A stretch of 13,411 nt of DNA from a virus (taxonomy: Duplodnaviria > Heunggongvirae > Uroviricota > Caudoviricetes). Where the stretch lies: positions 1 through 13,411 of the IMG/VR virus record IMGVR_UViG_2548876950_000004. One strand, given 5' to 3'. The notes beneath the pieces were generated by a model, which worked only from the letters and a program-made list of their open reading frames with translations, ran no database searches and was not told the DNA's origin. Positions 1 through 13,411 of this stretch are shown here, piece after piece (within the stretch, counting starts at the first letter, position 1; each line of letters starts with the position of its first letter). The position numbers were made by a program, and so were the translations under genes.

Positions 1-54
1 CTGGCAGCCTGAGTTCACAGATAAAACACTCTCCAGGAAACCCGGGGCGGTTCA
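1..54 (-). mobile_element. Terminal inverted repeat of an IS3-family insertion sequence (element body lies left of the window)
   Basis: Positions 2-54 are the exact reverse complement of 13359-13411. Read inward the end begins TGAACCGCCCCGGG, the TG...-type terminus I recall for IS3-family elements such as IS629. The identity runs to the window edge and stops abruptly at 54/55. Confidence 0.5.
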
Positions 55-157
55 AAACGCCCATGATTTTACAGGCTTTTGATACGTTGCTGAGTTCTTC
101 AGCCAGATTGAGCAAACCGGCTTTGTGTTTGATAACGGGATTGGTAGTATGAAGCAT
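55..157 (-). pseudogene. N-terminal fragment of an HTH-type protein, truncated at the IS junction
   Basis: ATG at 155-157 (reverse strand) preceded by GAGGT. Translation MLHTTNPVIKHKAGLLNLAEELSNVSKACKIMGV then runs straight into the IS-end sequence. The LAEELS-VSKACKIMGV stretch looks like the first helices of an HTH motif. Confidence 0.35.
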
Positions 158-280
158 GAGAGTTACCTCGTGTTTTGTATAAGGATTCGACACCCATATC
201 AAAACCGGTAACTCTCAACCTTTCAAGGCTCAGTGTCAGATCAAGTCGCGACTAATACACTCAATTCCATCATAAACTTC

Positions 281-409
281 TCAGTTGTTAGCTTTTGCCG
301 AACTGGAAAGCGCCTGTTTAAACTCACTGAAGCTGAGAGCTTCTTCGCCTTCGGCAAGGCCTTCGAAGTATTCTTCGTAAGCCTTTTTCATGATTGTGTC
401 GAAATCCAT
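281..409 (-). CDS. Small hypothetical protein, 42 aa (possibly YdaG-like)
   Basis: ATG at 407-409 (reverse strand) with AGGTGA 5 nt upstream; translation MDFDTIMKKAYEEYFEGLAEGEEALSFSEFKQALSSSAKANN, stop at 281-283. Below the 60-aa ORF-track cutoff. Sits upstream of the repressor like the small genes of Rac-type prophages. Confidence 0.4.
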   Translation of the reverse strand: MDFDTIMKKAYEEYFEGLAEGEEALSFSEFKQALSSSAKANN

Positions 410-419
410 ATCACTCACC

Positions 420-566
420 TTAGTTTCTTTCCAACCAGCGACGTGCGCCAGCTTCGGTTTTAAACGATTTGCTTTTGGTATACGTCATGGCGGTGAATGT
501 GCCGTCCTGATTGGGAAACACGCCACATACCAGAGATTCGTTGTTGCCAAGATCGATAGTATCCAT
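420..566 (-). CDS. Small hypothetical protein, 48 aa (possibly YdaF-like)
   Basis: Internal start MDTIDLGNNESLVCGVFPNQDGTF... of the 420..629 ORF, with GAGGT 4-5 nt upstream. The longer 69-aa form has no obvious ribosome-binding site. Confidence 0.4.
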   Translation of the reverse strand: MDTIDLGNNESLVCGVFPNQDGTFTAMTYTKSKSFKTEAGARRWLERN

Positions 567-816
567 GTTGACCTCATTTCCCCTTAACGCCGGGTGGCGG
601 AACGTTTTATCTACTGCGCTTTGTATCAATCAACAACTGCCGTCATGTTCGTATGCCTCAGGCTGGCTACTTAGCCCTGTTCAGTGGCTGGATAACTCGA
701 GGTATTGTCCAGCCGTTCTCTGGTGGGGCGTTGTTTGGATATGCTTATTAAACACAATGCGTTTTCTTATGTAAACACGAAATGTGTTTTGTGGTGAGTG
801 TCATATGATGATGGTA

Positions 817-841
817 CAAAAAAGCCCGCTGATAGCGGGCT
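817..841 (-). terminator. Intrinsic terminator downstream of the repressor gene
   Basis: Hairpin AGCCCGCT-GAT-AGCGGGCT (823-841) flanked by an A-run on the plus strand (817-822), which is a U-run after the hairpin on the minus strand. Confidence 0.6.
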
Positions 842-871
842 GATTGGCATATTACTGTGATAGCAAGATCA

Positions 872-1291
872 TTACTCCGGTGGGGGATTATCTTTAAGCC
901 TGCCTCTCAAATATTTTTCTACATACTCATCGATTTCTTTTAGCCGGACTTCAAATAGCTCAATCATTCGTTGTTGTTCTGAGCCAGGTAGCTGGTTAAA
1001 CAACTCAAGAAGTTTTCGTTGGGATTCATTTAACCACAATTCAGAAGATTCCTGTTCTCCAAATAGGAGCTCAGGAGGAGATATGCCAAGTGCCTTTCCC
1101 AATACGACAGCGTCATGCACTCCAACATTTCTGCTGCCCGCCTCATAGTTACCTATACGCGATTGCGTCCATCCGCAGATTTCAGCAAGTTTTCCTTGAG
1201 ATAAACCAAGCTTCTGCCTGCGCTCTTTAAGACGCATTGCAATTTTGTCATTGAGCCTACTAGCGGCAATTTTTTCGTTTTCTTTTTCCAT
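872..1291 (-). CDS. CI-like prophage repressor, XRE-family HTH, 139 aa, no S24 peptidase domain
   Basis: HTH segment LGLSQGKLAEICGWTQSRIGNYEAG; divergently oriented to a Cro-like gene across a 96-bp operator region; C-terminal part is charged/coiled-coil like with no Ser-Lys autocleavage domain. Confidence 0.8.
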   Translation of the reverse strand: MEKENEKIAASRLNDKIAMRLKERRQKLGLSQGKLAEICGWTQSRIGNYEAGSRNVGVHDAVVLGKALGISPPELLFGEQESSELWLNESQRKLLELFNQLPGSEQQRMIELFEVRLKEIDEYVEKYLRGRLKDNPPPE

Positions 1292-1387
1292 TGCATCCTT
1301 GTATCACGAATCGTGATTTACATAAAACACAAAACAGCTTGACCATATAACACAAGGTGTGTTTAAAATTGTCATCGGAGGTTTTCA
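1292..1387. promoter_or_regulatory. Immunity-switch operator/promoter region between divergent repressor and cro-like genes
   Basis: Contains palindrome ATCACGA-A-TCGTGAT (1303-1317), imperfect palindrome AACACA-AGG-TGTGTT (1349-1363) and a TTGACC -35-like hexamer (1336-1341). Confidence 0.6.
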
Positions 1388-1630
1388 ATGAACAAAATTT
1401 CAACATATCGAAAACAGCTTGGGCTGTCTCAAAGACAACTTGCTGTTCAGTTAGGGTGGATACAAAGCCGACTGGCAAATTACGAAGCAAATTTTCGTAC
1501 CCCTGGACTAGAGGAGTGCAGAAAAATTGTTTCTACCCTTAATCGGCTTGGCGCTCATTGTGGACTTGACGATGTATTCCCCCCAGACGGTAAGCATAGC
1601 GAAAACAGCATAGGAGCGGTTGATTCATGA
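1388..1630 (+). CDS. Cro-like HTH regulator, 80 aa (YdaS-like)
   Basis: GGAGG 6 nt upstream of the ATG. HTH LGLSQRQLAVQLGWIQSRLANYEA shares the GW-QSR-NYEA recognition-helix motif with the repressor. Stop overlaps the next start (ATGA at 1627-1630). Confidence 0.75.
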   Translation: MNKISTYRKQLGLSQRQLAVQLGWIQSRLANYEANFRTPGLEECRKIVSTLNRLGAHCGLDDVFPPDGKHSENSIGAVDS

Positions 1631-2049
1631 AAATCAGGCATGAGCACATCGAATCAGTGTTGTTAGCCCTGGCAGCCGAAAAAGGGCAGGCGTGGGTCGC
1701 TAACGCAATTACTGAAGAATATCTGCGCCAGGGGGGCGGCGAATTGCCCCTTGTACCAGGCAAGGACTGGAACAATCAGCAGAATATCTATCACCGTTGG
1801 TTGAAAGGTGAAACGAAAGCGCAAAGGGAAAAAATTCAGAAACTGATCCCTGCGGTTCTGGCAATTCTTCCGCGCGAGCTGCGTCACCGACTCTGCATCT
1901 TCGATACCCTGGAACGCCGTGCATTACTGGCGGCGCAGGAAGCGTTGAGTACGGCAATTGATGCGCATGATGATGCAGTCCAGGCCGTTTACCGGAAAGC
2001 ACATTTCAGCGGTGGTGGGTCGCCCGGCGATTCTGTCGTAGTGCATTGA
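1627..2049 (+). CDS. YdaT/CII-like prophage regulatory protein, 140 aa
   Basis: Translationally coupled to the cro-like gene; N-terminus MKIRHEHIE and the position after cro match my recollection of the Rac ydaS-ydaT arrangement. Identity is from recalled family features only. Confidence 0.5.
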   Translation: MKIRHEHIESVLLALAAEKGQAWVANAITEEYLRQGGGELPLVPGKDWNNQQNIYHRWLKGETKAQREKIQKLIPAVLAILPRELRHRLCIFDTLERRALLAAQEALSTAIDAHDDAVQAVYRKAHFSGGGSPGDSVVVH

Positions 2050-2126
2050 TTGAAATTAATCGTGCCGGATTGTTTTGTTCGGTATCAGTTAAATGTAACG
2101 CTGCGAGCGTTACAAGGTGAAAACAA

Positions 2127-2909
2127 ATGGCTTCAAACTGGATAAAGCTCGAGGTTATTACGCCGGATAAGCCGGAAATATTCAGGCTTGCTGAGATTCT
2201 GAATATTGATCCAGATGCCGCATTAGGGAAGGTTATTCGCTTCTGGGCATGGGCGGATCAACAAATGATAGACGGTAATGCAGATTGTAACGCTCGCGGC
2301 GTTACAAAAAGTGCAATAGATCGCATCACTTTTATGGCTGGTTTTGCTGATGCGTTAATTCAGGTTGGATGGCTGATCGAAAATGACGGTGGGCTTTCTC
2401 TACCTAACTTTGAACGTCATAACGGGAAAAGCTCTAAAAAACGGGCGGTTACAAACGAGCGAGTAACAAAAATACGCGAACTGCAACGAAAAGGTAACGC
2501 TGCCAGCGTTACACAAACGGATCAAAAAGCGTTACCAGAGGAAGAGGAAGATATAAATACTGATCTCCCCCTAAATCCCCCTCGCCAAAAACGAGCGTCT
2601 AAAAAATTCGAGCCGGAGGCTATCGAGCTGCCTGACTGGTTGCCGGAAACACTCTGGCATGAGTGGTTTCAGTTCAGGCAGGCATTGCGAAAACCGATTC
2701 GAACGGAGCAGGGCGCTAACGGGGCGATACGGGAACTGGAAAAATTCCGTCAGCAGGGTTTTACACCTGAGCAGGTGATTCGACACAGCATCGCCAATGA
2801 ATACCAGGGCCTGTTCGCGCCGAAAGGTGTTCGGCCTGAGACGTTGCTCCGACAGGTTAACACCGTCTCGTTGCCGGACAGTGCGATCCCGCCAGGCTTC
2901 AGGGGGTAA
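2127..2909 (+). CDS. Replication initiation/primosomal protein, DnaT-like C-terminus (YdaU-like), 260 aa
   Basis: AGGTGA ribosome-binding site; sits directly upstream of the DnaC-like gene, as in the dnaT-dnaC and lambda O-P arrangements; C-terminal W/F-rich segment DWLPETLWHEWFQFRQALRKP; gene body carries repeated palindromes. Confidence 0.55.
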   Translation: MASNWIKLEVITPDKPEIFRLAEILNIDPDAALGKVIRFWAWADQQMIDGNADCNARGVTKSAIDRITFMAGFADALIQVGWLIENDGGLSLPNFERHNGKSSKKRAVTNERVTKIRELQRKGNAASVTQTDQKALPEEEEDINTDLPLNPPRQKRASKKFEPEAIELPDWLPETLWHEWFQFRQALRKPIRTEQGANGAIRELEKFRQQGFTPEQVIRHSIANEYQGLFAPKGVRPETLLRQVNTVSLPDSAIPPGFRG

Positions 2910-2915
2910 CGGACC

Positions 2916-3662
2916 ATGAAAAATATTGCGACAGGCGGTGTTCTTGAACGTATCCGTAAGCTGGCTCCGCAGCATGTAACCGCGCCGTACCGGACAGTGG
3001 ACGAGTGGCGAGAGTGGCAGCTTGCAGAAGGGCGAAAACGTAGCGAGGAGATCAACCGCCTGAATCGTCAGTTGCGGGTGGAAAAAATTCTGAATCGCTC
3101 AGGCATCCAGCCGTTGCATCGTAAATGCTCGTTTGCAAATTACCAGGTGCAGAACGACGGCCAGCGATACGCGTTAAGCCAGGCGAAATCCATCGCCGAT
3201 GAACTGATGACCGGGGGTACAAATTTTGCGTTCAGCGGAAAACCTGGTACCGGGAAGAACCACTTAGCGGCAGCTATCGGAAATCGCCTGCTGAAAGATG
3301 GCCAGACAGTGATTGTGGTTACTGTGGCTGATGTTATGAGTGCCCTGCATGCCAGCTATGACGACGGACAGTCAGGCGAAAAATTTTTGCGGGAACTGTG
3401 CGAAGTGGATCTGCTGGTTCTTGATGAGATTGGCATTCAGCGCGAGACGAAAAACGAGCAGGTGGTACTGCACCAGATTATTGATCGACGGACAGCGTCG
3501 ATGCGTAGCGTGGGAATGCTGACAAATCTGAACTATGAGGCCATGAAAACATTGCTCGGTGAGCGGATTATGGATCGCATGACCATGAACGGCGGACGCT
3601 GGGTGAATTTTAACTGGGAGAGCTGGCGTCCGAATGTCGTCCAGCCAGGAATTGCGAAGTAA
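2916..3662 (+). CDS. DnaC-like helicase loader, AAA+ ATPase (IstB/DnaC family), 248 aa
   Basis: Walker [16 protein letters not shown] and Walker [10 protein letters not shown]; size and placement after the initiator gene. Confidence 0.85.
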
Positions 3663-3684
3663 TTTTTACCGGGAGAAAAATTTA

Positions 3685-4446
3685 ATGGAGACTGTTTTTG
3701 ACGCACTGAAAGCAATGGGAAAAGCCACATCCATAGAACTTGCTGCGCGACTTGATATCAGTCGTGAAGAGGTACTGAACGAGCTGTGGGAACTGAAAAA
3801 AGCTGGTTTTGTTGATAAAACCGCGTACACCTGGCGCGTGGCTGAAAACAACGTTCAGCAGGAACAGTCAGCGCAGGCAGAACTGCCGGAAGAAACCACC
3901 ACAGCAACAGTAGCGAAAATCTCAGAGTGCGATTTAACCGCAACGATTGAACAACGCGGACCACAAACGGCTGATGAGCTGGCTACATTGTTTGATACCA
4001 CATCACGCAAAGTGTCTTCAACGCTGGCAATGGCAATCAGCAAAGGTCGTCTGATTCGCGTAAATCAGGGCGGTAAATTTCGTTACTGCATACCGGGCGA
4101 TAATTTACCAGCAGAGCCGAAAGCAGCATCGGTAGCGGAAACTGATGGTAAAGCCTTTCCTCAGCCTGCATGTGTTGCGTTACCAGTACAGGAAGCTGCA
4201 ACACAGGAAGATATTAAAACAGAAACGATGGCGGACATTGTGCAGTCGCTGCCATCGTTTACTGCAACGCGATCTGATGATTTGATTTTGCCATCGCTGC
4301 ATTTGGCAAACCGCGAACTGCGTCGGGCGAAAAATCATGTCCAGAAGTGGGAGCGTGTCTGCGCCGCGCTGCGTGAGTTGAACAAGCACAGGGATATTGT
4401 ACGACAGATTACTGATTCTTCCCGCCATGTTGCATCGGAAAAGTGA
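3685..4446 (+). CDS. Hypothetical phage protein with two winged-helix-like segments, about 253 aa
   Basis: Start chosen at ATG 3685 (GGGAGA upstream) to avoid overlap with the DnaC-like gene. Segments [30 protein letters not shown] and [35 protein letters not shown] resemble winged-helix DNA-binding folds. Confidence 0.55.
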
Positions 4447-4461
4447 TTGCCGGAGGCGCTT

Positions 4462-4854
4462 ATGGCAAAAGTATTTACACAAGAAGAGCGGGAAGAAGTG
4501 AAGGCGCGCATTGTGGAATTCGTGCGCCTGAGCGGACGAGAAACTTTTCGACAACTGGCAGATAAAACGGGTGTCAGTAAGACCGCTATTCGTCGTTTAT
4601 CTGGTGCGCTTGCGGCCAGTGGTGATGTCTGGCTCTCTGGTTGCGGGGTATTTCCATCAGAGCAGGCGTATCGCGTATGGCGTAAGACACCGGAGAAGGC
4701 TGCTGACCCGACACTGATTCGAAAGTTACCTGACGGAGAAATACGTCGTTACAACAGACGGCAGAACATAATTTGTCGTGAGTGCCGCCAGAGCGAAGTT
4801 ATGCAGCGTGTGCTGGCGTTCTATCGGGGAAACTTTCAGGAGGTGATGTTGTGA
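4462..4854 (+). CDS. Hypothetical HTH-containing protein, about 130 aa
   Basis: GGAGG 5 nt upstream of ATG 4462; HTH-like FRQLADKTGVSKTAIRRLSG; stop overlaps the next gene's start. Confidence 0.5.
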   Translation: MAKVFTQEEREEVKARIVEFVRLSGRETFRQLADKTGVSKTAIRRLSGALAASGDVWLSGCGVFPSEQAYRVWRKTPEKAADPTLIRKLPDGEIRRYNRRQNIICRECRQSEVMQRVLAFYRGNFQEVML

Positions 4855-5324
4855 GTGAGTCGGCTACCATTCTCGACATGTGCTGTGGCAGTCGCATGTT
4901 CTGGTTTGATAAGAATGACGAACGGGCGATATTTAGCGATATCAGAAAAGAAGAGCACACATTGTGTGATGGACGACGCCTGATTATCAGTCCTGACCTG
5001 ATAGCAGATTTTCGAGCATTACCATTTGCAGACGCATCGTTTCCGGTTGTTGTATTCGACCCTCCGCATCTTGAGCGTGTTGGTGATAACGCCTGGATGG
5101 GAAAGAAATATGGACGGCTGAATAAAGATACCTGGCGAGATGATTTGCGGCAGGGATTTAAAGAAGCCTTTCGTGTGTTGTGCCCACGCGGCGTTCTGAT
5201 TTTTAAATGGAATGAAACGCAAATACCTGTTCGCCAGATATTGGTACTGACCGACAGAAAACCTGTTATCGGTCAACGAACAGGAAAAAACGATAAAACC
5301 CACTGGATTATTTTTATGAAATAG
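4851..5324 (+). CDS. Putative small SAM-dependent DNA methyltransferase (N6-adenine type, DPPH motif), about 157 aa
   Basis: GTG start at 4851 with AGGAGG 6 nt upstream. Motif I-like ILDMCCGSRMF followed by motif IV-like VVFDPPHL, the order seen in gamma-type amino-methyltransferases. Confidence 0.45.
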   Translation: MSESATILDMCCGSRMFWFDKNDERAIFSDIRKEEHTLCDGRRLIISPDLIADFRALPFADASFPVVVFDPPHLERVGDNAWMGKKYGRLNKDTWRDDLRQGFKEAFRVLCPRGVLIFKWNETQIPVRQILVLTDRKPVIGQRTGKNDKTHWIIFMK

Positions 5325-5572
5325 GCATCCAGTGAGTAGGTTCGTAAGGTTACAGATGCGTATATCTGAATAATTAAATTCAGTTCTGTAAATAAAATTT
5401 AATCCTTAACCGGAGGGATTCCTGCACCCTCAGAACATCAGGAGACCGCCCGAAAGGGCGGTAATGAAAAATGGCTGAATGAACCAAATGGCTACAAAAC
5501 ACGATTACCGGAATTGAAACGGTAGTAGACGATAAATCGTTTGTATGTGATGAAATAGTATTCAAAATCGAT

Positions 5573-5938
5573 GTGGTTAAAAACGTACTTACCGCATTTA
5601 AAGTCGCGCTGGTATCGCTGGAAGCCGAACCGGTGACATGGCGATATCGCTACGTGAGAAAAGGCGTTACGAACTTTCAGGAGAAGCCGTGGGTTGGTGA
5701 CTGGAAATATGTACCGACAAAAGAGGATTGCAACGACAGGCCGAACTATGAAATTCAGGCGTTATTCACGGCCCAGCCTGTGCCACTGACACCCGAAGGA
5801 TTGATTAAAGCGGTGCGCTTCTATGAACAGGTTAAGAGTGAAAATCCGCCAGTCGAAACCGGAGCATGGAAAGACGCTGTTGACTGGGTGCTCAAAGAGG
5901 CTTGTCAGGCTGTAAACATTGGCATCAAAGGAGAGTGA
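5573..5938 (+). CDS. Hypothetical protein, 121 aa, start uncertain
   Basis: Long ORF with no internal Met; GTG start at 5573 lacks a clear ribosome-binding site. Leads a co-oriented, tightly packed cluster. Confidence 0.45.
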   Translation: MVKNVLTAFKVALVSLEAEPVTWRYRYVRKGVTNFQEKPWVGDWKYVPTKEDCNDRPNYEIQALFTAQPVPLTPEGLIKAVRFYEQVKSENPPVETGAWKDAVDWVLKEACQAVNIGIKGE

Positions 5939-5939
5939 G

Positions 5940-6131
5940 ATGAACGGACAAATCTCAATTGTTCGACCGGGAGCATGTGACGATTGCGAGATACGAATGA
6001 TTATTCGTCTGGCGATGGGGAAAACAATAACTGCTCTCATTACTCCAGAAAATCTCGCATTAGCATTAACAGGAAAGTCAGACCTGCCAGTAGAGCTAAA
6101 GCTGCGAAATGTTGAGATTAAGGTGAAATAG
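5940..6131 (+). CDS. Hypothetical protein, 63 aa
   Basis: ATG at 5940 with AAGGAGAG 5 nt upstream, two bases after the upstream stop; ends 2 bp before the next gene. Confidence 0.5.
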   Translation: MNGQISIVRPGACDDCEIRMIIRLAMGKTITALITPENLALALTGKSDLPVELKLRNVEIKVK

Positions 6132-6133
6132 CT

Positions 6134-7555
6134 ATGACCACTATTACCAAAGAGCGACTGCTGACAATCAAGCAGTGGCGCGAAACATACGGACCTGGTA
6201 GCAACGTTGTACTGCCAGCAGAAGAAGCGGAAGAACTGGCACGGATTGCACTGGCATCATTGGAAGCAGATCCAGTTAAACGAGTTAACTCAGATCAGAT
6301 GCACCGAGTCTGCTTAGAAGCTAATCGCTATTTAGATAAATATGACGCGATGGCGAAAGAGGTAAATAAGTTGCTTGGACGCATCGCCCCGCCAGCGCCA
6401 GTATTTAACGGCGAATACGGTGACGCATATCAGGGCGCTCGTGAAGACCTGTCCATCTGGAAACGGCGAGCGCTTGAAGCTGATGAGCACGTTCGGCGAC
6501 TGGAGCAAATCAATGACCACATGGTGAAAGAGGCGCAGGGAGAATCACGCATGGGCGAGCCTGTAATACGTGAGCCAGCACCGGTAGTGCCTGAAGAAGC
6601 AACTCCGGAAAACGTAGAAATGCTCTCTGGCTATGTTTCAACGTACAAATTAACCGATAGCGAGCGCGATATTGCTGCCGAAATATGGAACGCCTGCCGC
6701 GCCGCCATGCTTCAGTCAGGAAACTTTCGGGAAAACAAGAATTCGTCAACCAATAATTTTCGGGAAATCGAGGAAACGTCAACCAACTATCCGGCAATTC
6801 CTAGTGAGGTGTTGTCCGCAATCCTGAAGGTTGCCAGGATTCGTGCCGATTTCGATGATTTTGACGGTGACAGGCGAGGTATCGGTGATTGTCTGGATGA
6901 GGCTGAGCAAGAGCTTATCGTTACCATTAACAAATATGCCAGTCAGTTGGCAGCAGAACCGATAGCGACTAATGACGTTCGAGAGCAGCAGACAGCCGTT
7001 CCGCCAGTTCCGGAAATACAGGCTGATGTCGCGCAAGCAATTGAAAATCTCAAGCAGAAGCTAGTGGAATGTAATCGCTATAACTACTGCGCAGATGCAG
7101 TTAAAGGCGTAGAGGATGCCTGCCGTGCTGTTAGCTATAGCCAAGCCGACAATCAACCAGCATCTGGCAACCAGGCTGCCGAATCCAATCGCGGTAATGA
7201 GTGGACCGGCAATCCTGATATTGATAACGCCATCATCATGCTCGACCGCATAGATACGCTGGAAAATTGCGATGATGACCGTATTGAGGCTGTTAAGGCT
7301 GTTTTGCGTAGACTGGCTGGCAACTATCCGGTAACTCCGGATGGTTGGATAAGCTGTAGTGAGCGAATGCCGAATACCAAAACAGCCGTTCTTGTTGCCG
7401 TGGAGTTTGACAGGAAAGGTGACTGGCGAATGAAATGGGCTACTTACATCCCGGGGCATCCTGACGCTAATGATGGGTGGATAATTCCTGGTGCGTCGTG
7501 GAAACCGTCACACTGGATGCCGCTACCAGAACCGCCGCAGGAGGTGCGCCAATGA
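6134..7555 (+). CDS. Large hypothetical phage protein with DUF551-like C-terminus, 473 aa
   Basis: AAGGTGA ribosome-binding site; acidic, low-complexity central region; C-terminal WISCSERMP...SHWMPLPEPP matches the recalled DUF551 signature. Confidence 0.6.
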   Translation: MTTITKERLLTIKQWRETYGPGSNVVLPAEEAEELARIALASLEADPVKRVNSDQMHRVCLEANRYLDKYDAMAKEVNKLLGRIAPPAPVFNGEYGDAYQGAREDLSIWKRRALEADEHVRRLEQINDHMVKEAQGESRMGEPVIREPAPVVPEEATPENVEMLSGYVSTYKLTDSERDIAAEIWNACRAAMLQSGNFRENKNSSTNNFREIEETSTNYPAIPSEVLSAILKVARIRADFDDFDGDRRGIGDCLDEAEQELIVTINKYASQLAAEPIATNDVREQQTAVPPVPEIQADVAQAIENLKQKLVECNRYNYCADAVKGVEDACRAVSYSQADNQPASGNQAAESNRGNEWTGNPDIDNAIIMLDRIDTLENCDDDRIEAVKAVLRRLAGNYPVTPDGWISCSERMPNTKTAVLVAVEFDRKGDWRMKWATYIPGHPDANDGWIIPGASWKPSHWMPLPEPPQEVRQ

Positions 7556-7635
7556 TCTGGCCTGAAGCCTTTGCAATTACAGGCGTTGCTATAGCTATTG
7601 ATTTTTTAGTATATGTTATTTGTCGGTGGGGGTAA
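7552..7635 (+). CDS. Tiny hydrophobic peptide, 27 aa
   Basis: ATG overlaps the upstream stop (ATGA) with GGAGGTG upstream; translation MIWPEAFAITGVAIAIDFLVYVICRWG is a single predicted transmembrane helix. Below ORF-track cutoff. Confidence 0.4.
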   Translation: MIWPEAFAITGVAIAIDFLVYVICRWG

Positions 7636-7670
7636 AAACGTTCGCCGGGATTCACACCAAAGGAGGGAAT

Positions 7671-7775
7671 ATGTCGGATGATATTTCACTGGCAATGGAA
7701 GGTGCGCTGGCTGTTATTGCTGTTGTGGGCGTTTACTGCCTGGTTGTGTTTTTGATGGATCGACTAGGGAACTGA
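7671..7775 (+). CDS. Tiny hydrophobic peptide, 34 aa
   Basis: AAAGGAGGGAAT-ATG; translation MSDDISLAMEGALAVIAVVGVYCLVVFLMDRLGN with a central hydrophobic helix. Below ORF-track cutoff. Confidence 0.45.
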   Translation: MSDDISLAMEGALAVIAVVGVYCLVVFLMDRLGN

Positions 7776-7783
7776 ATTCATTA

Positions 7784-7805
7784 CGATATGGGAATTCCCA
7801 TATCG
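7784..7805. repeat. Perfect 22-bp palindrome CGATATGGGAATTCCCATATCG
   Basis: Exact self-complement with a central GAATTC, 9 bp after the 34-aa peptide stop and upstream of the hok locus; no T-run follows, so not a classical terminator. Confidence 0.7.
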
Positions 7806-7909
7806 GGTAAAAACGGTTTGCGGTAAAGCGAGAGTTAAGTAGAATTGCTGCGGGTGCTTGAGGCTATCTGCCTCGGGCATGCCACCGTAAGGCAGACAGA
7901 GAAAAGCCC

Positions 7910-7975
7910 CAGTTAACATTACGCGTCCGGCAAGACGCTTAACATTAATCTGAGGCCATATCTATGCTCTACACA
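7910..7975 (-). ncRNA. Expected position of the Sok-like antisense RNA of the hok locus (approximate, not delimited)
   Basis: Placed by analogy with hok/sok architecture, where the antisense RNA overlaps the leader and upstream start region. Promoter and 3' end could not be pinned from sequence. Confidence 0.25.
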
Positions 7976-8020
7976 CGTAGGTTAGCCTCTTACGTGCCGA
8001 AAGGCAAGGAGAAGCAGGCT

Positions 8021-8176
8021 ATGAAGCAGCAAAAGGCGATGTTAATCGCCCTGATCGTCATCTGTTTAACCGTCATAGTGACGGCACTGGTAACGAGGAA
8101 AGACCTCTGCGAGGTACGAATCCGAACCGGTCAGACGGAGGTCGCTGTCTTCGTAGACTACGAATCTGAGAAGTAA
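8021..8176 (+). CDS. hok: Hok/Gef-family type I toxin, 51 aa; in-frame upstream start at 7964 gives a 70-aa Mok-like form
   Basis: MKQQKAMLIALIVICLTVIVTALVTRKDLCEVRIRTGQTEVAVFVDYESEK has the hallmark Hok/Gef transmembrane segment and TRKDLCEV...GQTEVA motif; AGGAG upstream of ATG 8021. Confidence 0.8.
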   Translation: MKQQKAMLIALIVICLTVIVTALVTRKDLCEVRIRTGQTEVAVFVDYESEK

Positions 8177-8244
8177 GAGACCAGGCGGGGGAGTAATCTC
8201 CCGCCACCTCTGATGTGTCAGGCATCCTCAACGCACCCGCACTA

Positions 8245-8267
8245 AACCCGCTTCGGCGGGTTTTTTG
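8245..8267 (+). terminator. Intrinsic terminator at the 3' end of the hok transcript
   Basis: Hairpin AACCCGC-TTCG-GCGGGTT followed by TTTTTTGTT; a second GC-rich hairpin lies just upstream (about 8192-8210). Confidence 0.7.
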
Positions 8268-8451
8268 TTGCGTGCTGAATGCGCAGGGTGAAAAATAACC
8301 ATATATTTGATTATATACACAACAAAAAATAAAAGTCATTGTACCTGCACATTAAATAATCAAATATACAGCGTGAAATAAATATTTTTCAGATTAATAT
8401 TTTTGTCTCTATGTGGATATAACCGTTTGTACTTATAAACTCGGAGGCATC

Positions 8452-8664
8452 GTGGAAAAAATAAAGAAACTATTTAGTTGCAAATACGCAGTCATACGTC
8501 GTGATGACCTGTCAGTTATAGTCGAAATGGATTACTTCCCTGAAACCCCAAAATCAATGATGTATCGTAATGGTCGAAAGGCAATTTTTTTACCGATGAG
8601 GGTAAGTGACATTATGGGAAATGATAAACTGCTGGATGAATTGCGAGTCAGAGCATCCTGTTAG
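8452..8664 (+). CDS. Hypothetical protein, about 70 aa
   Basis: GTG at 8452 with GGAGG 4 nt upstream, preferred over the ATG at 8413 which lacks a ribosome-binding site; AT-rich promoter-like region upstream. Confidence 0.45.
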   Translation: MEKIKKLFSCKYAVIRRDDLSVIVEMDYFPETPKSMMYRNGRKAIFLPMRVSDIMGNDKLLDELRVRASC

Positions 8665-8735
8665 TATTGGCATTAATTCTGGTATACTACATAACGGGCT
8701 GAACACCCATTCTACTGCGCCAGCGGAGAACTACG

Positions 8736-9335
8736 ATGGCGCATATACAACTGGTCAAACAAACCTCTTCCGGATTACTTCTCCCGGCGACACCGGAGAG
8801 TTGCGATTTTTTGCATCAAATCAAAATAGGCGAGTGGATACACGCAGACTTTAAGCGTGTGCGTAACTACGCATTCCACAAGCGTTTTTTCAAACTCCTG
8901 CAACTGGGATTCGATTACTGGACTCCGGTCGGTGGGGCGATCACGCCTCGCGAACGAGAACTGCTGTCTGGTTTCGTTGATTACCTGTGCGAATCAGTTG
9001 GTCGGGAACACACGCCAGCCCTGAGTGATGCCGCAGAGCAATATCTGAATACAGTTGCGACACGCAGAACCCGGGATACGGCATTGTTAAAGTCGTTTGA
9101 GGCTTTTCGCGAGTGGGTAACCATTCAGGCTGGATTTTACACCGAACATTTTTATCCGGACGGTAGCCATGGGCGTCGGGCGAAATCCATCGCTTTTGCG
9201 AATATGGACGAAACCGAGTTTCAGCAGGTTTATAAATCTGTTCTGAATGTGCTGTGGAACTGGATTCTGTTCCGTAAATTTTCCTCTCCGGAACAAGTCG
9301 AAAATGTGGCCGCGCAGCTGCTGGAGTTTGCGTAA
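8736..9335 (+). CDS. Conserved lambdoid nin-region protein, 199 aa
   Basis: GGAGA 6 nt upstream of the ATG; stop overlaps the next start (TAATG); family assignment (DUF1367-like) is from memory only. Confidence 0.55.
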   Translation: MAHIQLVKQTSSGLLLPATPESCDFLHQIKIGEWIHADFKRVRNYAFHKRFFKLLQLGFDYWTPVGGAITPRERELLSGFVDYLCESVGREHTPALSDAAEQYLNTVATRRTRDTALLKSFEAFREWVTIQAGFYTEHFYPDGSHGRRAKSIAFANMDETEFQQVYKSVLNVLWNWILFRKFSSPEQVENVAAQLLEFA

Positions 9336-9625
9336 TGGTGGATTTACGTAAAGCGGCGCGGGGGCAGATGTGCACCGTCAGAATTCCTGGCTACTGCAAT
9401 CACGATCCGGAAACGTCTGTGCTGGCGCATTACCGACTGGCGGGAACGTGCGGAACAGCGATAAAGCCACACGATATGCAGGCAGCGATTGCCTGTAGCT
9501 CGTGCCACGATTTAATCGACGGGCGGGTAAAAACCGGCGATTACACCAAAGAAGAATTACGCCTGATGCATGCAGAAGGTGTTTTTCGCACACAAGAAAT
9601 CTGGAGAAAGGAGGGATATTTATGA
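9335..9625 (+). CDS. YbcO-like (DUF1364) cysteine-rich protein, putative nuclease, 96 aa
   Basis: Size and several cysteines (CTVRIPGYC...CGT...ACSSCHD) fit the YbcO family that sits before Q in lambdoid prophages; translationally coupled on both sides. Confidence 0.55.
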   Translation: MVDLRKAARGQMCTVRIPGYCNHDPETSVLAHYRLAGTCGTAIKPHDMQAAIACSSCHDLIDGRVKTGDYTKEELRLMHAEGVFRTQEIWRKEGYL

Positions 9626-10176
9626 TTTACCCAACGAATACAGGAAAAAGCGGAGAACACCTTCGTCTCACCACGCTGGAAAGTGTCTGGATTCAGGGAA
9701 AACTACGTATGTGGGGGCGCTGGTCGTATATTGGCGGCGGTAAGACGGGAAATATGTTTAACCAGTTGCTGACCTCTAAAAAGCTAACAAAAACGGCAAT
9801 TAATGAGGCGCTCCGGAGGATGAAAAAAGCAGGTCTGGACAAACCTGAACTTGAGGCTTTTTTGCGGGATATGATCAACGGCAAGCAAAAAAGCTGGCTG
9901 GTGCATTGTACTGATGCAGAGGCGTTATGCATTGATCGGGTGATTAGTGAAGTGCTGGCAGAACACCCAGGATTGATTTGTATCCTCCGGCAAAGATATG
10001 AAGGGCGGGGGATGAGTAAGCGCAAAATGGCTGAATTGCTAAATGATGCACACCCTGAGTGGTGTTTTCGGACGTGCTGCAGTCGGGTAGATGTATGGCT
10101 AAATCTTGCTGAATATATGCTCTATCTGCCGATGCGTGATGCATTCTCTTCCGGGTATTTAAAAACTGTCTGTTGA
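9622..10176 (+). CDS. Putative late-gene antiterminator Q, 184 aa
   Basis: Called mainly from position: last gene of the nin-like block, immediately followed by a strong promoter overlapping its stop and a short terminated leader. Strong AAAGGAGGG ribosome-binding site. Sequence family not confirmed. Confidence 0.5.
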   Translation: MIYPTNTGKSGEHLRLTTLESVWIQGKLRMWGRWSYIGGGKTGNMFNQLLTSKKLTKTAINEALRRMKKAGLDKPELEAFLRDMINGKQKSWLVHCTDAEALCIDRVISEVLAEHPGLICILRQRYEGRGMSKRKMAELLNDAHPEWCFRTCCSRVDVWLNLAEYMLYLPMRDAFSSGYLKTVC

Positions 10177-10202
10177 CTCAATCTGTTATCCGGGGCTATA
10201 TT
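10173..10202 (+). promoter_or_regulatory. PR'-like late promoter (TTGACT-N18-TATATT)
   Basis: -35 TTGACT at 10173-10178 overlaps the stop of the upstream gene; -10 TATATT at 10197-10202. Confidence 0.55.
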
Positions 10203-10264
10203 CCTCACGCGCCAGCAAAATCTGGCGTCGGGATTAGGAACCCCGGATAGAGACCGCGACAGAC

Positions 10265-10287
10265 ACACGCCGCGAGCGTGTTTTTTA
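10265..10287 (+). terminator. tR'-like intrinsic terminator ending a short (about 80 nt) leader RNA
   Basis: Hairpin ACACGC-CGCGA-GCGTGT followed by TTTTTTATT, about 60-80 nt downstream of the PR'-like promoter. Confidence 0.65.
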
Positions 10288-10449
10288 TTGTCGTATGCAC
10301 GCGCACATCTGAATTATGGTGGGGCGTATGGGGGAGCTGAAAAGCTCGCCGGTTGGTTTCCCGGTAGTTCCTAACCCTGTACGTCTCACCACCCGATGAT
10401 TAGGAACCTGACGGTGGTGATGGTTTAGAAACCACCAGAGGGCGTCATT

Positions 10450-11031
10450 ATGACAACTCAAATTTCTGTTGAAACTCTCTCCCCGATCACCCATAACCAG
10501 ATTCCTGTTATTACCACCGAACTTTTGGCGCAGTTGTACGGTGCTGGAGTTAAGAACATTCAAAATAACTACGCCAGAAATGCTGAGCGCTTTATTGAAG
10601 GAAAGCATTTTTTCAAAGTGGCTGGCGATGCCCTGAAAAATTTGCGGGTAGCTTTAAACTACTCACAAAATTTGCAACCATCTTTAAGAGGGTTACAAAT
10701 TTCCCCGAAAGCCCGCTCCCTCATCCTCTGGACAGAACGCGGAGCAGCCCGTCATGCCAAAATGCTGGAAACCGATCAGGCGTGGGATGTGTTCGAAAAG
10801 CTGGAAGACTGCTATTTCAGACAAAAGGATCCGTCAGCGCCAGTTTCATGCCAGAAAAGTTACGACACGCGAGTTCTCTGTTATCAGAGAGGCGGTGTCA
10901 CTGTTTCCACAATTCAGTTACGGGATGATGATATTGTTATTTCCCTTGAGTCATGGCTGGAACTGGCGAGAGCCAATGGTTGGTTTGTTGTTCGCAGAGA
11001 TAAACTGGTGGAAAGGTTGATGCAGCTTTAA
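10450..11031 (+). CDS. ORF6N/KilA-N-like domain protein (antirepressor-type regulator), 193 aa
   Basis: N-terminal IPVITTELLAQLYGAGVKNIQNNYARNAERFIEGKHFFKV matches the recalled ORF6N consensus (LAELYG...RN..RF...F). Confidence 0.55.
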   Translation: MTTQISVETLSPITHNQIPVITTELLAQLYGAGVKNIQNNYARNAERFIEGKHFFKVAGDALKNLRVALNYSQNLQPSLRGLQISPKARSLILWTERGAARHAKMLETDQAWDVFEKLEDCYFRQKDPSAPVSCQKSYDTRVLCYQRGGVTVSTIQLRDDDIVISLESWLELARANGWFVVRRDKLVERLMQL

Positions 11032-11128
11032 AAAAGTTCTTGCATTTTTGCACATAAACTGCTTCAATTCCTGTATGCTTCGCAAAGCTGTATCGCGAGG
11101 CGAAACGCAAGTTTTTTTCGCACAAGGA

Positions 11129-11151
11129 AGCCACCGGAAGGTGGTTTTTTT
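11129..11151 (+). terminator. Intrinsic terminator after the ORF6N gene
   Basis: Hairpin CCACC-GGAA-GGTGG followed by TTTTTTT. Confidence 0.65.
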
Positions 11152-11274
11152 GTGTCCGTAATATACAGCAGCGCAATAAATTCGCTGGTGGTTATTAATA
11201 CCGTTCTTTCAGCTTGCTGGCTTTTTCGACAAGAGTTATTGGTATGTCACGTTAACCGGAAAGGGTAAAAAGAC

Positions 11275-11472
11275 ATGCTGAAACAGCAGGATATGACAGA
11301 AACCGCCAGAGTTGTGTTTGATGAATTAAGCGTTACCGAACCGGCGACAGTCGGGGAGATTGCGCAGAATACTTACCTTTCACGCGAACGCTGCCAGTTA
11401 ATACTGACCCAGCTGGTTATGGCGGGTCTGGCAGACTATCAGTGCGGTTGTTACAGACGCATTCAGTCCTGA
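11275..11472 (+). CDS. Small putative DNA-binding protein, 65 aa
   Basis: ORF with a weak AAGGG ribosome-binding site; the VGEIAQNTYLSRERCQLILTQLVMAGL segment looks like a winged-helix/HTH. Confidence 0.4.
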   Translation: MLKQQDMTETARVVFDELSVTEPATVGEIAQNTYLSRERCQLILTQLVMAGLADYQCGCYRRIQS

Positions 11473-11505
11473 AGGCTTTTTATTTGTGGTAAATGGGCGG
11501 CTGGT

Positions 11506-11513
11506 GGGGGGGG
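11506..11513. repeat. Homopolymeric G8 tract upstream of the AraC-family gene
   Basis: Eight consecutive G (GGTGGGGGGGGCGG) about 95 bp upstream of the ATG at 11608. Confidence 0.8.
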
Positions 11514-11607
11514 CGGCACCTGTCAGTCCTTTGCTTATGTGTTGATGATAATTTACCTTTTGGGGCTATAATTGAGCTAACCAATTGCTAATGAAAGTAA
11601 AATTATA

Positions 11608-12321
11608 ATGGCTGTTGTCTGTTCAGTTATCATGGTTTGCTCCCCAATTAATATTTTTCTTGAAAAGGATACGTTGTCACTTAAGCCAGGCTCAGTCGTT
11701 CTGGCCACCAAATGCATCAGGGAGCTTTTCCTTATGCATTATGGCAAAGTTAAAATTGTCGATATAAGCGAATCCGTCGTAAGTCAATATCTGGAAAGTC
11801 AGCATAAGCTGACGAGGACTCGTCTGACTGACATTCCGCTTTACCTGTTGCTGGAACCCAACAATCCTGCGTTGGCTGCGGCTTTAATTACCAGCCAGGG
11901 ATTTTCCGGAGAGGTCACGGATATGTTTCTTATGATGGCCTGCCTGTCTCTGTTTGAAACAGATGAACGGATGTCATTGTTTTTAAGTGGATGTTTATCC
12001 AGCATAAGTGCCAAAGTCAGGGCGATAATTCAGACAGATATATCAGCAAGCTGGACGCTTGGTGCGATTGCTCTACAGTTGCATATGAGTGAGAGTTTGT
12101 TAAAGACAAAACTGAAAAATGAAGGGGGCATGTTCAGTCGCTTGTTGCTGGAAGAGCGGATGCGTGTTGCTGTAAATATGTTATGTTCCCGGCATGGATA
12201 TGGACAGGCTGTAGCAGAAAAATGCGGTTATTCAAGCAGGTCCTACTTTATTTCTGTATTTCACCGCTATTATGGCTTCCCGCCAGACAGATATGTATCC
12301 AGGCAAGGGCTTGATTATTGA
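11608..12321 (+). CDS. AraC/XylS-family transcriptional regulator, 237 aa
   Basis: C-terminal double-HTH typical of the family (SWTLGAIALQLHMSESLLKTKLK...YGQAVAEKCGYSSRSYFISVFHRYYGFPP); located in the cargo slot between Q and the lysis genes. Confidence 0.75.
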   Translation: MAVVCSVIMVCSPINIFLEKDTLSLKPGSVVLATKCIRELFLMHYGKVKIVDISESVVSQYLESQHKLTRTRLTDIPLYLLLEPNNPALAAALITSQGFSGEVTDMFLMMACLSLFETDERMSLFLSGCLSSISAKVRAIIQTDISASWTLGAIALQLHMSESLLKTKLKNEGGMFSRLLLEERMRVAVNMLCSRHGYGQAVAEKCGYSSRSYFISVFHRYYGFPPDRYVSRQGLDY

Positions 12322-12349
12322 TTTTCATCTGATTATTATTTTTTGGCTC

Positions 12350-12425
12350 GGCCCTTTAGCTCAGTGGTGAGAGCGAGCGACTCATAATCGCCAGGTCGCT
12401 GGTTCAAATCCAGCAAGGGCCACCA
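12350..12425 (+). tRNA. tRNA with CAU anticodon (Ile2/Met type, ileX-like)
   Basis: Cloverleaf by hand: acceptor GGCCCTT/AAGGGCC, anticodon loop CTCATAA, T-loop TTCAAAT, 3' CCA. Close to the host ileX sequence as I recall it. Confidence 0.7.
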
Positions 12426-12426
12426 A

Positions 12427-12503
12427 CCGCCACTAGCTCATCAGGAAAGAGCGTCAACCCTTTAAGTTGAGTGTGCGAGGTTCGAGTCCCCGGTGGCGGT
12501 CCA
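12427..12503 (+). tRNA. Atypical tRNA-like gene, anticodon UUU (Lys-like), possibly a pseudo-tRNA
   Basis: Acceptor CCGCCAC/GTGGCGG with CCA end, D-arm and TTCGAGT T-loop present, but C at position 33, a C1:G72 start and one T-stem mismatch. Confidence 0.45.
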
Positions 12504-12505
12504 GT

Positions 12506-12581
<76 letters not shown>

Positions 12582-12584
12582 TAT

Positions 12585-12659
<75 letters not shown>

Positions 12660-12866
12660 GTTAGAGTCTTTCAGTCTGCGATGATGGGAAATCCCGGAGT
12701 GACTGAAAGACGTTTAGGTTATGAATGATCGCTTTTTTTTGCAAAATTGCTGTGCAGAAATACTAACCTTCGGGCAGGCGATCATTCATAAGCACTCTGC
12801 TTTTATTCCGATTAACTGTGGGTGGTTTGTTGGATAGAGTGCTTTCCTGACTGTAGATCCAATTTC

Positions 12867-12891
12867 GCCCGCTTTTGCGGGCTTTTCTTTT
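12867..12891 (+). terminator. Intrinsic terminator downstream of the tRNA cluster
   Basis: Hairpin GCCCGC-TTTT-GCGGGC followed by TTTTCTTTT. Confidence 0.7.
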
Positions 12892-12951
12892 CAAATCCCT
12901 TTCATCTCTCAGTGTAAAACTACGCCATCCGTTATTTGCGGAGGTGAGGCT

Positions 12952-13167
12952 ATGAAATCCATGGACAAAATTTCAACGGGCATTGCCTACGGCACCTCCG
13001 CAGGCAGTGCTGGCTACTGGTTTTTACAGTGGCTTGATCAAGTCAGTCCGTCACAGTGGGCTGCGATTGGTGTACTGGGGAGTCTGATTCTGGGCTTCCT
13101 GACTTATCTGACAAATCTGTACTTCAAAATCAGAGAAGACAAGCGTAAGGCTGCACGGGGAGAGTAA
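12952..13167 (+). CDS. Phage 21-type class II holin (pinholin) with dual-start motif, 71 aa
   Basis: [27 protein letters not shown]...[13 protein letters not shown] closely matches S21 as I recall it, including the M-K-S-M dual start (12952 and 12961); GGAGGTGAGG ribosome-binding site. Confidence 0.85.
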
Positions 13168-13171
13168 TTCA

Positions 13172-13358
13172 ATGACTCAAAACTATGAAGTGATTGTGAA
13201 AGGGATCCGCAATTTTGAGAATAAAGTTACGGTAACTTTAGCGTTACGGGACAAAAAACGCTTTGACGGTGAAATTTTTGACCTGGACATCTCGCTGGAC
13301 CGTGTTGAAGGTGCCGCGCTGGAGTTTTATGAGGCAGCAGCCAGAAGGAGCATCAGAC
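13172..13358 (+). pseudogene. Lysis-region gene (possibly YdfR-like) truncated by the IS insertion
   Basis: ATG at 13172 with GGGGAGAG upstream; ORF MTQNYEVIVKGIRNFENKVTV... runs in frame into the IS-end sequence at 13359 with no stop before the window edge. Family name from memory only. Confidence 0.4.
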
Positions 13359-13411
13359 TGAACCGCCCCGGGTTTCCTGGAGAGTGTTTTATCTGTGAAC
13401 TCAGGCTGCCA
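13359..13411 (+). mobile_element. Terminal inverted repeat of an IS3-family insertion sequence (element body lies right of the window)
   Basis: TGAACCGCCCCGGGTTTCCTGGAGAG..., the exact reverse complement of window positions 2-54. Confidence 0.5.

Follow-up and report, generated by a model that had tools for sequence, protein, structure and literature searches.

Introduction

In the genome of phage HK620, the genes hkaG (described as similar to P22 eaD), hkaF (similar to an unnamed ORF) and hkaE (similar to P22 eaA and carrying the DUF551 domain) follow one another, and this trio is the closest described counterpart of the locus analysed here: five co-oriented open reading frames (ORFs) of 121, 63, 473, 27 and 34 amino acids (aa) at positions 5573-7775 of a 13,411-nucleotide (nt) stretch of Caudoviricetes DNA (IMG/VR record IMGVR_UViG_2548876950_000004, positions 1 to 13,411), the whole of which we call the window. 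The first three frames, ORF1, ORF2 and ORF3, stand in the same order as hkaG, hkaF and hkaE, and the trio has therefore been on record since HK620 was annotated. Both loci have a 63-aa middle gene, spacings of 1-2 nt and a downstream gene with the same DUF551 C-terminus. They differ in that the HK620 trio lies beside int in the leftward early operon, whereas that of the window lies in a rightward operon; in that the hkaE product has 177 aa, compared with 473 aa and extra blocks for ORF3; and in that ORF1 of the window has another N-terminal module and a nonsense codon.

Ea22, known from lambda and from the Shiga toxin (Stx) phage phi24B, is a mosaic, tetrameric protein that favours lysogeny, and one published Stx-phage variant of it carries DUF551 (PMC7093339, PMC10834534). 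ORF1 occupies the same slot and has the same GI(R/G)IKGE tail as lambda Ea22, and the general layout (variable N-terminus, helical middle, swappable C-terminal domain, acidic C-terminal parts) is shared. On the other hand, ORF1 and ORF3 lack the Pfam domain Ead_Ea22, ORF3 has no similarity to lambda Ea22, and lambda has no homologue of ORF2.

A further DUF551 protein, YfdS, is part of the yfdQRST cluster in CPS-53, a cryptic prophage of E. coli K-12; over-expression of the cluster inhibits replication initiation, and the reported effects, on replication initiation and peroxide sensitivity, came from over-expression of the cluster or from deletion (PMC4776307). YfdS has the same Pfam domain as ORF3, and ORF1-ORF2 occur in CPS-53-like prophages in front of a DUF551 gene; however, YfdS is short, without the long mosaic N-terminal part of ORF3, and the yfdQRST effects are not assigned to the DUF551 domain itself. 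Finally, the hok/sok type I toxin-antitoxin locus directly follows the 34-aa gene in nearly every case, and small membrane peptides are found in both; the 27-aa and 34-aa ORFs nevertheless have no sequence relationship to Hok/Gef, no antisense RNA was detected for them, and they lie upstream of the start of the hok/sok element at 7852.

Results and Discussion

Linkage of the five ORFs

Our comparisons showed that the locus belongs to known, uncharacterised phage gene families, of which it is an ordinary and partly decayed representative, and that it is not a new five-gene system. We consider it probable that a lambda-/P22-like accessory trio (a gene in the Ea22/Ead position, hkaF and an EaA-type DUF551 gene) was relocated and partly decayed: it would have been placed in a Rac-like cryptic prophage, within the early operon read rightward, with its 3’ end joined to a separate conserved block made up of the 3’ end of a DUF551 gene, the 27-aa ORF, the 34-aa gene and hok/sok. 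The part of this explanation that concerns the identity of the families and their mosaic origin is, on sequence comparison, very likely correct. For practical purposes its value is mainly negative, in that further work on the locus as a novel system of five genes is not warranted.

The initial annotation, made from the letters alone, had described five co-oriented ORFs of these lengths that are separated by 0-35 bp or overlap, and all of this was confirmed on the sequence. ORF1 and ORF2 are 1 nt apart and ORF2 and ORF3 2 nt; ORF3 overlaps the 27-aa ORF by 4 nt (ATGA), and 35 nt lie between the 27-aa and 34-aa ORFs. Shine-Dalgarno motifs precede ORF2 (AAAGGAGAG), ORF3 (AAGGTG), the 27-aa ORF (AGGAGGT) and the 34-aa ORF (AAGGAGG). 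Scans for internal promoters and terminators across the five ORFs gave counts near chance and nothing convincing that would separate them, so that co-transcription is plausible. From this anatomy the five genes would be read within the early rightward transcript, with ORF2, ORF3 and the 27-aa ORF translationally coupled.

Tight spacing, co-orientation and a ribosome-binding site on all genes except ORF1 could also indicate a single dedicated operon-module of all five genes, in which ORF3 would act as sensor or effector and the two peptides would be its membrane components. We regard this as very improbable, since the parts differ widely in distribution and neighbours elsewhere. Exact copies of the proteins were found on 426 (ORF1), 944 (ORF2), 6 (ORF3, one of the six being the 13,411-nt window contig itself), 5 (27-aa) and 984 (34-aa) contigs. 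The whole 2.5 kb is present in 3 of 5,426 complete E. coli genomes (three unrelated genomes, 99.9-100% identity), with pieces of it in 4,386. Among 80 loci carrying ORF2 (described below), the C-terminal module of ORF1 lies upstream in 14 and the 34-aa gene downstream only in L022, the twin of the window; conversely, the 34-aa gene follows DUF551 genes of varied length that are accompanied by neither ORF1 nor ORF2. Thus, of the one-operon proposal in the initial annotation, co-orientation and translational coupling stand, while a five-gene module varying together does not. The locus had also been put forward as the best local candidate for an uncharacterised module; the genes proved to be largely scattered independently among related prophages, and the more cautious description offered alongside it, ordinary phage genes of unknown function, is the right one.

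Considering these differences in distribution and neighbours, the five genes fall into three overlapping, separately inherited blocks, which are methyltransferase-ORF1-ORF2, then ORF2 to the DUF551 gene, and then the DUF551 3’ end with the 27-aa and 34-aa ORFs and hok. For example, CPS-53-like prophages have the methyltransferase, the same spacer and ORF1-ORF2 adjoining YfdP and DUF2303 (YfdQ-like) genes, then a different or disrupted DUF551 gene after ORF2 and an exonuclease-like gene, with the small peptides and hok absent. The segment that accompanies ORF1-ORF2 into these prophages consists of a 157-aa S-adenosylmethionine (SAM)-dependent methyltransferase gene (4852-5324) and the spacer at 5325-5470.

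ORF2 and its junctions

ORF2 (5940-6131, plus strand, ATG start, 63 aa) belongs to the HkaF family, phrog_1222, which it matches over profile positions 1-63 of 63 (E=1.3e-40), and is 94% identical to HK620 HkaF. We fetched 80 viral contigs carrying ORF2, in 79 of which sequence past its stop codon was available; these loci are the best ORF2 matches or the exact matches on the longest contigs, and the frequencies drawn from them are indicative rather than population estimates. An ATG stands exactly 2 nt past the ORF2 stop in 72 of the 79 loci, and a DUF551 domain was found downstream, at +491 to +1388 nt, in about 67 of the 80, several of the others running off the contig end. This tight coupling of ORF2 to a DUF551 gene is the one real functional hint in the locus, and the HkaF-DUF551 pairing and the 34-aa membrane peptide are the only items here worth an experiment.

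Upstream of ORF2, the 80 loci have 49 distinct genes, many encoding Ea22-like coiled-coil mosaics and one family of them being unrelated. All except one of the 49 (48/49) end in a short common tail, mostly IRIKGE and otherwise IGIKG[EA], IGTKGE, ISIKGE or IGVKG[KE]; lambda Ea22 itself ends in SDAGIRIKGE. In the window this conserved junction (5915-5939, plus strand) comprises the last codons of the upstream gene (NIGIKGE, the counterpart of AGIRIKGE in lambda Ea22 and 40-odd further upstream genes), its TGA stop and one spacer base, and it holds the ribosome-binding site of ORF2, AAAGGAGAG, at 5927-5935, within those last codons. One shuffling junction thereby doubles as the ribosome-binding site of the next gene.

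Identity to the window across the loci is 0.35-0.43 up to position -31 from ORF2, rises to 0.81 at -30 to -1, stays at 0.97-0.99 across ORF2 itself (77 loci), and falls to 0.88 at +180 to +209 and to about 0.5 or less beyond. The plateau is partly there by construction, because the loci were picked for ORF2 similarity; the sharp edges do not stem from that selection, and ORF2 is a sharply bounded conserved island between hypervariable neighbours.

Homologues of ORF2 with 63-68% identity were also seen in lytic Dhillonvirus siphoviruses, for example at positions 2501-2692 of L103 (Escherichia phage Haito_Bas83), so the HkaF protein is not confined to temperate phages. There the gene is flanked by a DNA polymerase gene on one side and, on the other, by an endonuclease gene to which related records give the label VRR-NUC; a Lar-like restriction-alleviation gene is two genes away, and no DUF551 gene is nearby. 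In addition, phrog_11564 (labelled DNA methyltransferase) has two matches here, to the methyltransferase over profile positions 2-93 and to ORF2, in its C-terminal half, over positions 83-117; the family therefore looks like a deletion-fusion of the two genes.

Two other identities of ORF2 were considered and rejected. It gave no local alignment with E<=100 to lambda Orf63 (DUF1382), whose matching length of 63 aa is coincidental. A zinc-binding protein was suggested by a CDDC motif and a weak match to eS27 (E=0.48), and was discarded because neither cysteine is kept in the HK620 or Dhillonvirus homologues.

ORF3, a mosaic DUF551 protein

ORF3 (6134-7555, plus strand, 473 aa) is an acidic mosaic DUF551 protein of the EaA type. 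That it is DUF551-like with a conserved C-terminus had been read from the sequence at the outset, and Pfam bears this out: DUF551 (PF04448), a small, beta-rich C-terminal domain encoded at 7343-7540 (plus strand), matches aa 404-469 at 74.5 bits, compared with a cut-off of 22 (E=1.3e-20), and the match covers all 68 positions of the profile. The C-terminal motifs W-x3-SERMP, HPD and HWMPLPxPP are present, and an alignment of 19 DUF551 sequences (A2, 51-67% identity) is invariant at W16, E21, R22, P24, H53, P54, H71, W72 and P76. The middle of the protein is acidic, again as first described, with an isoelectric point (pI) of 4.3-4.4 for aa 148-398 and 4.74 for the whole.

The protein can be divided into four blocks, all encoded on the plus strand: A (aa 1-147, 6134-6574), B (aa 148-293, 6575-7012), C (aa 294-398, 7013-7327) and D, with the DUF551 domain (aa 399-473, 7328-7552). 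The block borders coincide with recurring short linkers, ALASLEA(E/D)PV, PAPVVPEEATPEN and AGN(S/Y)PVTPDGW. Relatives of ORF3 form more than 7,857 clusters at 90% identity; those of about 365 aa consist of blocks A, B and D (97%), and those of about 410 aa have another N-terminus followed by B, C and D (96%). Considering that the two types share block B almost identically, one crossover within it, between a 365-aa-type and a 410-aa-type gene, would yield ORF3, which by this comparison is a rare chimera of common blocks. The sensor or effector role first proposed for ORF3 found no support; the protein is a patchwork of blocks recurring in thousands of relatives.

The alignments showed the same short DNA junctions, those encoding ALASLEAEPV, PAPVVPEEATPEN, AGN(S/Y)PVTPDGW and the GI(R/G)IKGE tail, to be conserved across otherwise unrelated alleles, and recombination at them swaps whole modules. 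The locus thus illustrates cleanly that phages can shuffle the modules of accessory proteins by way of short junctions that are conserved where genes and domains meet. Automatic annotation, at the same time, breaks such chimeras into false pseudogene fragments: on NZ_CP148401.1, where positions 8900-10156 of our excerpt L001 correspond to window 6299-7555, the Prokaryotic Genome Annotation Pipeline (PGAP) has placed two partial DUF551 pseudogene features and a 62-aa DUF551 coding sequence. This splitting of ORF3 appears to be an artefact of homology-guided annotation on a chimera.

The DUF551 domain is matched by 1,122 representative proteins at E<=0.001. Phages infecting Pseudomonas, Rhizobium, Synechococcus and other hosts have it, in many cases as a protein of its own with 60-100 aa. 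No partner domain was seen in the ten longest DUF551 representatives, which carry DUF551 alone in Pfam. An AlphaFold2 model of the domain, of moderate confidence (predicted local distance difference test, pLDDT, 66), has three strands of at least three residues, and in a viral structure library it matched only other DUF551 models, with probability up to 1.0 and template modelling (TM) scores of 0.5-0.6. With a function assigned to any of these families, thousands of genes could be annotated.

The gene in the Ea22 position

ORF1, as first called, has 121 aa and starts at a GTG (5573-5938, plus strand); most of its relatives have 148-170 aa. The full frame of the gene in this position starts at an ATG (5471-5938, plus strand) and has 155 aa in relatives, where it begins MAELTKWLQNTITG; one such relative, P0184, with this beginning, is 98% identical. 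In the window the in-frame translation upstream of ORF1 reads MAE*TKWLQNTITG: the gene opens with ATG GCT GAA TGA in the window and in its twin L006, the stop being codon 4 (5480-5482), and with ATG GCT GAA TTA in eight other loci (L002-L005 and L007-L010). The MAELTKW module with which the gene opens is also the first module of DUF551 genes in other phages, which speaks for a true start at ATG 5471. Existing annotations give the 121-aa GTG form for TGA and TTA loci alike, even where the longer frame is open.

By its reading frame, then, ORF1 is the remainder of a nonsense-truncated 155-aa gene. It is probably inactive or poorly expressed in the lineage of the window, because GTG 5573 has no ribosome-binding site, and the stop at codon 4 would probably silence it.

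ORF1 matches phrog_660 (E=1.5e-46) and carries an ALVSLEAEPV linker and a C-terminal module ending in NIGIKGE, the module being common to P0211 and P0256, proteins that carry Pfam Ead_Ea22. Its position is that of Ea22, directly upstream of hkaF and ending 1 nt before ORF2 with the NIGIKGE tail; this slot-plus-GI(R/G)IKGE-tail definition is one made in this analysis and not the curated definition of an Ead/Ea22-like family.

Eight nt 5’ of ATG 5471 there is a hairpin with a 7-bp stem (ACCGCCC-GAAA-GGGCGGT, 5445-5462, plus strand) and a GAAA loop, identical in 9 of 9 loci that carry ORF1 and not followed by a T-run.

The nonsense codon in ORF1 raises the possibility that the window copy is non-functional debris, its frames being open only through recent assembly from intact genes. 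The PGAP calls, which mark ORF3 as DUF551 fragments and pseudogenes, point the same way, as do the two copies of IS1203 and several truncated genes annotated in the prophage around the identical locus, because of which we take the prophage to be cryptic. Moreover, the exact ORF3 chimera is rare (6 contigs) and all of its blocks have counterparts in intact genes elsewhere at 96-98% identity, so that its open frame of 1,422 nt says little about selection. Against this, neither ORF2 nor the 34-aa gene is damaged and both are strongly conserved, the ORF3 frame is unbroken with its ribosome-binding site and coupling signals intact, and the arrangement is kept in the three unrelated complete genomes. 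On balance we consider debris a possible but doubtful description; it is compatible with a relocated trio joined to a 3’ block as far as the families are concerned and differs from it solely on whether the window copy still works.

The two small ORFs upstream of hok/sok

The 34-aa gene (7671-7775, plus strand; ribosome-binding site AAGGAGG at 7660-7666) corresponds to RefSeq WP_001278450.1, annotated as hypothetical, and its predicted product, MSDDISLAMEG followed by an 18-residue hydrophobic stretch and DRLGN, is a small single-pass membrane protein. Nine aligned copies of the frame show 7 synonymous and 3 conservative non-synonymous changes and one ATG-to-GTG start change (P=0.0035 in a rough binomial test against 25% synonymous), and on such comparisons there is good evidence that the gene encodes a real protein under purifying selection; its product would be a genuine small membrane protein. 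The protein is indexed in 11,444 blocks of the sequence collection. The 296-nt segment at 7556-7851, which holds the gene, was found in 671 of the 5,426 complete E. coli genomes (about 12%), often in two or more copies (median two). Most of the carriers are Shiga-toxin strains, and most belong to O157, O145 or O111.

The 27-aa hydrophobic ORF (7552-7635, plus strand; ribosome-binding site AGGAGGT) starts at an ATG that overlaps the ORF3 stop (ATGA). Its frame is open in 9 of 9 aligned relatives, with 5 synonymous versus 8 non-synonymous changes, an in-frame 6-nt deletion and, in three copies, W26 changed to a stop. The frame and the ATGA overlap persist where the 3’ end of the upstream gene differs. 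On this record the 27-aa ORF is unproven as a coding gene. Of the three proteins and two membrane peptides first listed, then, the 34-aa gene is upheld, the 27-aa ORF is unproven and ORF1 is a remnant of the 155-aa gene.

One locus in which the upstream 3’ end differs is that of NZ_CP074904.1 (L104 330-390), where the gene upstream of the small peptides ends TINEYASQIAVEATQGENQ and is a relative of ORF3 block B without DUF551; here too, stop and 27-aa frame overlap as ATGA.

The hok/sok locus (7852-8263, plus strand; hok coding sequence 8021-8176, terminator 8244-8263) was identified by Rfam sok (112.6 bits, 7852-8026) and Pfam HOK_GEF. In ten contexts of the 34-aa gene, it lies 115 bp past the end position of the DUF551 gene and hok is next in 10 of 10; a DUF551 gene of 120-289 aa is called in 9 of the 10, to which the window adds a case of 473 aa, and an Ea22-like gene with a 63-aa gene is present in only 3. 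Six more divergent copies of the small-ORF segment have hokD downstream in five cases and a DNA cytosine methyltransferase in one.

The two peptides could accordingly be viewed as type I-like membrane toxins functionally tied to the adjacent hok/sok: both are short and hydrophobic (grand average of hydropathy, GRAVY, 1.3-1.4), both lie almost always directly upstream of hok, and antisense RNAs might arise from two weak promoter-like sites on the other strand (7695-7668 and 7636-7608). However, those sites are 9-of-12 consensus matches, roughly at chance rate, Rfam found no antisense-RNA family over 7552-7775 (a permissive search of 5250-8300 returned sok only), and Pfam had no Hok/Gef or other toxin-family match for either ORF. 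Net acidic peptides with strong, unoccluded ribosome-binding sites, as these are (pI about 4.1-4.4), do not resemble typical type I toxins, and one locus has the 34-aa gene without hok. We therefore think it improbable that the peptides are such toxins.

A perfect 22-bp palindrome (CGATATGGGAA/TTCCCATATCG, CGATATGGGAATTCCCATATCG; 7784-7805), containing an EcoRI site, lies 9 nt past the stop of the 34-aa gene, between that gene and hok/sok; it is kept in 7 of 9 aligned relatives, with a 1-nt deletion in two.

What the trio might do

The initial annotation had held that no function can be assigned from the sequence, and this agrees with our searches of Pfam, PHROGs, NCBIfam, PADLOC and the Protein Data Bank (PDB), which gave no functional family. 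NCBIfam returned nothing meaningful, matches in PADLOC-DB were at chance level only (E 0.02, 12-13 bits), and PDB sequence searches with ORF1, ORF2 and ORF3 gave no match. Literature searches on the peptide sequences, accession numbers, hkaF/hkaE and eaA/ead found nothing relevant.

By analogy with Ea22 and YfdS, the trio may adjust host physiology or the lysis-lysogeny choice, a suggestion that we make tentatively. The products would probably be non-essential early proteins, and ORF3 might form a scaffold, acidic, for the most part helical and possibly oligomeric, from which the small DUF551 beta domain is offered to a host partner. Several observations weigh against these analogies or against the trio explanation in general. 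Pfam PF13935 (Ead_Ea22) did not match the 155-aa form of ORF1 or ORF3 even at E<=10, compared with 40.8 bits for the control P0211, so that the functional analogy with Ea22 rests on gene position and shared modules, not homology. ORF3 as a homologue of lambda Ea22, the C-terminal domain of which has a solved structure, was rejected, the best BLASTP E being 1.3. A search of solved structures with the DUF551 model gave no significant match and thus no characterised structural relative, and the full-length ORF3 model, made by AlphaFold2 from a 68-sequence alignment, is mostly helical and unreliable (pLDDT 39), for which reason the helical-scaffold picture is weak; this model was left out of the fold search. 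The selection of the linkage loci by ORF2 similarity counts on the same side.

The extreme diversity of the trio (the thousands of ORF3-related clusters and the many upstream partners described above) could instead reflect a retargetable cassette for host interaction or an arms race, countering host defences or excluding other phages, in which swapped N-terminal and middle modules choose the target and a constant DUF551, perhaps with HkaF, delivers a common activity. The acidity of ORF3 would fit this, as would the orphan methyltransferase that adjoins the trio and travels with ORF1-ORF2, and the restriction-alleviation gene near the Dhillonvirus homologue. P22-like and lambda-like phages carry host-takeover genes in the region beside int and the recombination genes, and it is in this region that the trio usually has its home. 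At the same time, mosaicism also arises by neutral recombination between dispensable genes, no PADLOC match reached a meaningful E-value, Pfam, PHROGs and NCBIfam held no anti-restriction or anti-CRISPR family match, and there was no structural match. We consider such a cassette unlikely, and the same applies to the wider proposal that, separately from it, the 34-aa peptide is a new prophage small membrane protein with its own role, possibly tied to hok. A relocated and partly decayed accessory trio remains our preferred explanation.

The surrounding prophage

The window covers the early-right part of an E. coli prophage of the Rac/Qin-like kind and is 100% identical to NZ_CP148401.1. The gene order there begins with repressor-like genes, YdaT, a hypothetical gene and ydaV (an ATP-binding replication-type gene), continues with DUF1627, DUF977, the SAM-dependent methyltransferase, the five-ORF region and hok/sok, and ends with DUF1367, DUF1364 and DUF1133 (in the NinB-like, YbcO and Q-like positions), tRNAs and lysis genes. 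The five ORFs thus lie between the replication genes and the NinB-like, YbcO and Q-like genes (DUF1367, YbcO/DUF1364 and DUF1133), in the variable accessory position that had been read from the sequence initially.

Just downstream of the Q-like gene, Rfam detected a P1/P7-type antisense immunity set (10196-10396, plus strand), consisting of c4-a1b1 targets (10196-10249), isrK (10209-10286) and the C4 antisense RNA (10312-10396), which is followed by an ORF6N-domain (antirepressor-like) gene at 10450-11031. Four tandem tRNA genes (12350-12656), for Ile, Lys, Thr and Gly according to the annotation of the identical genome, lie upstream of the holin gene.

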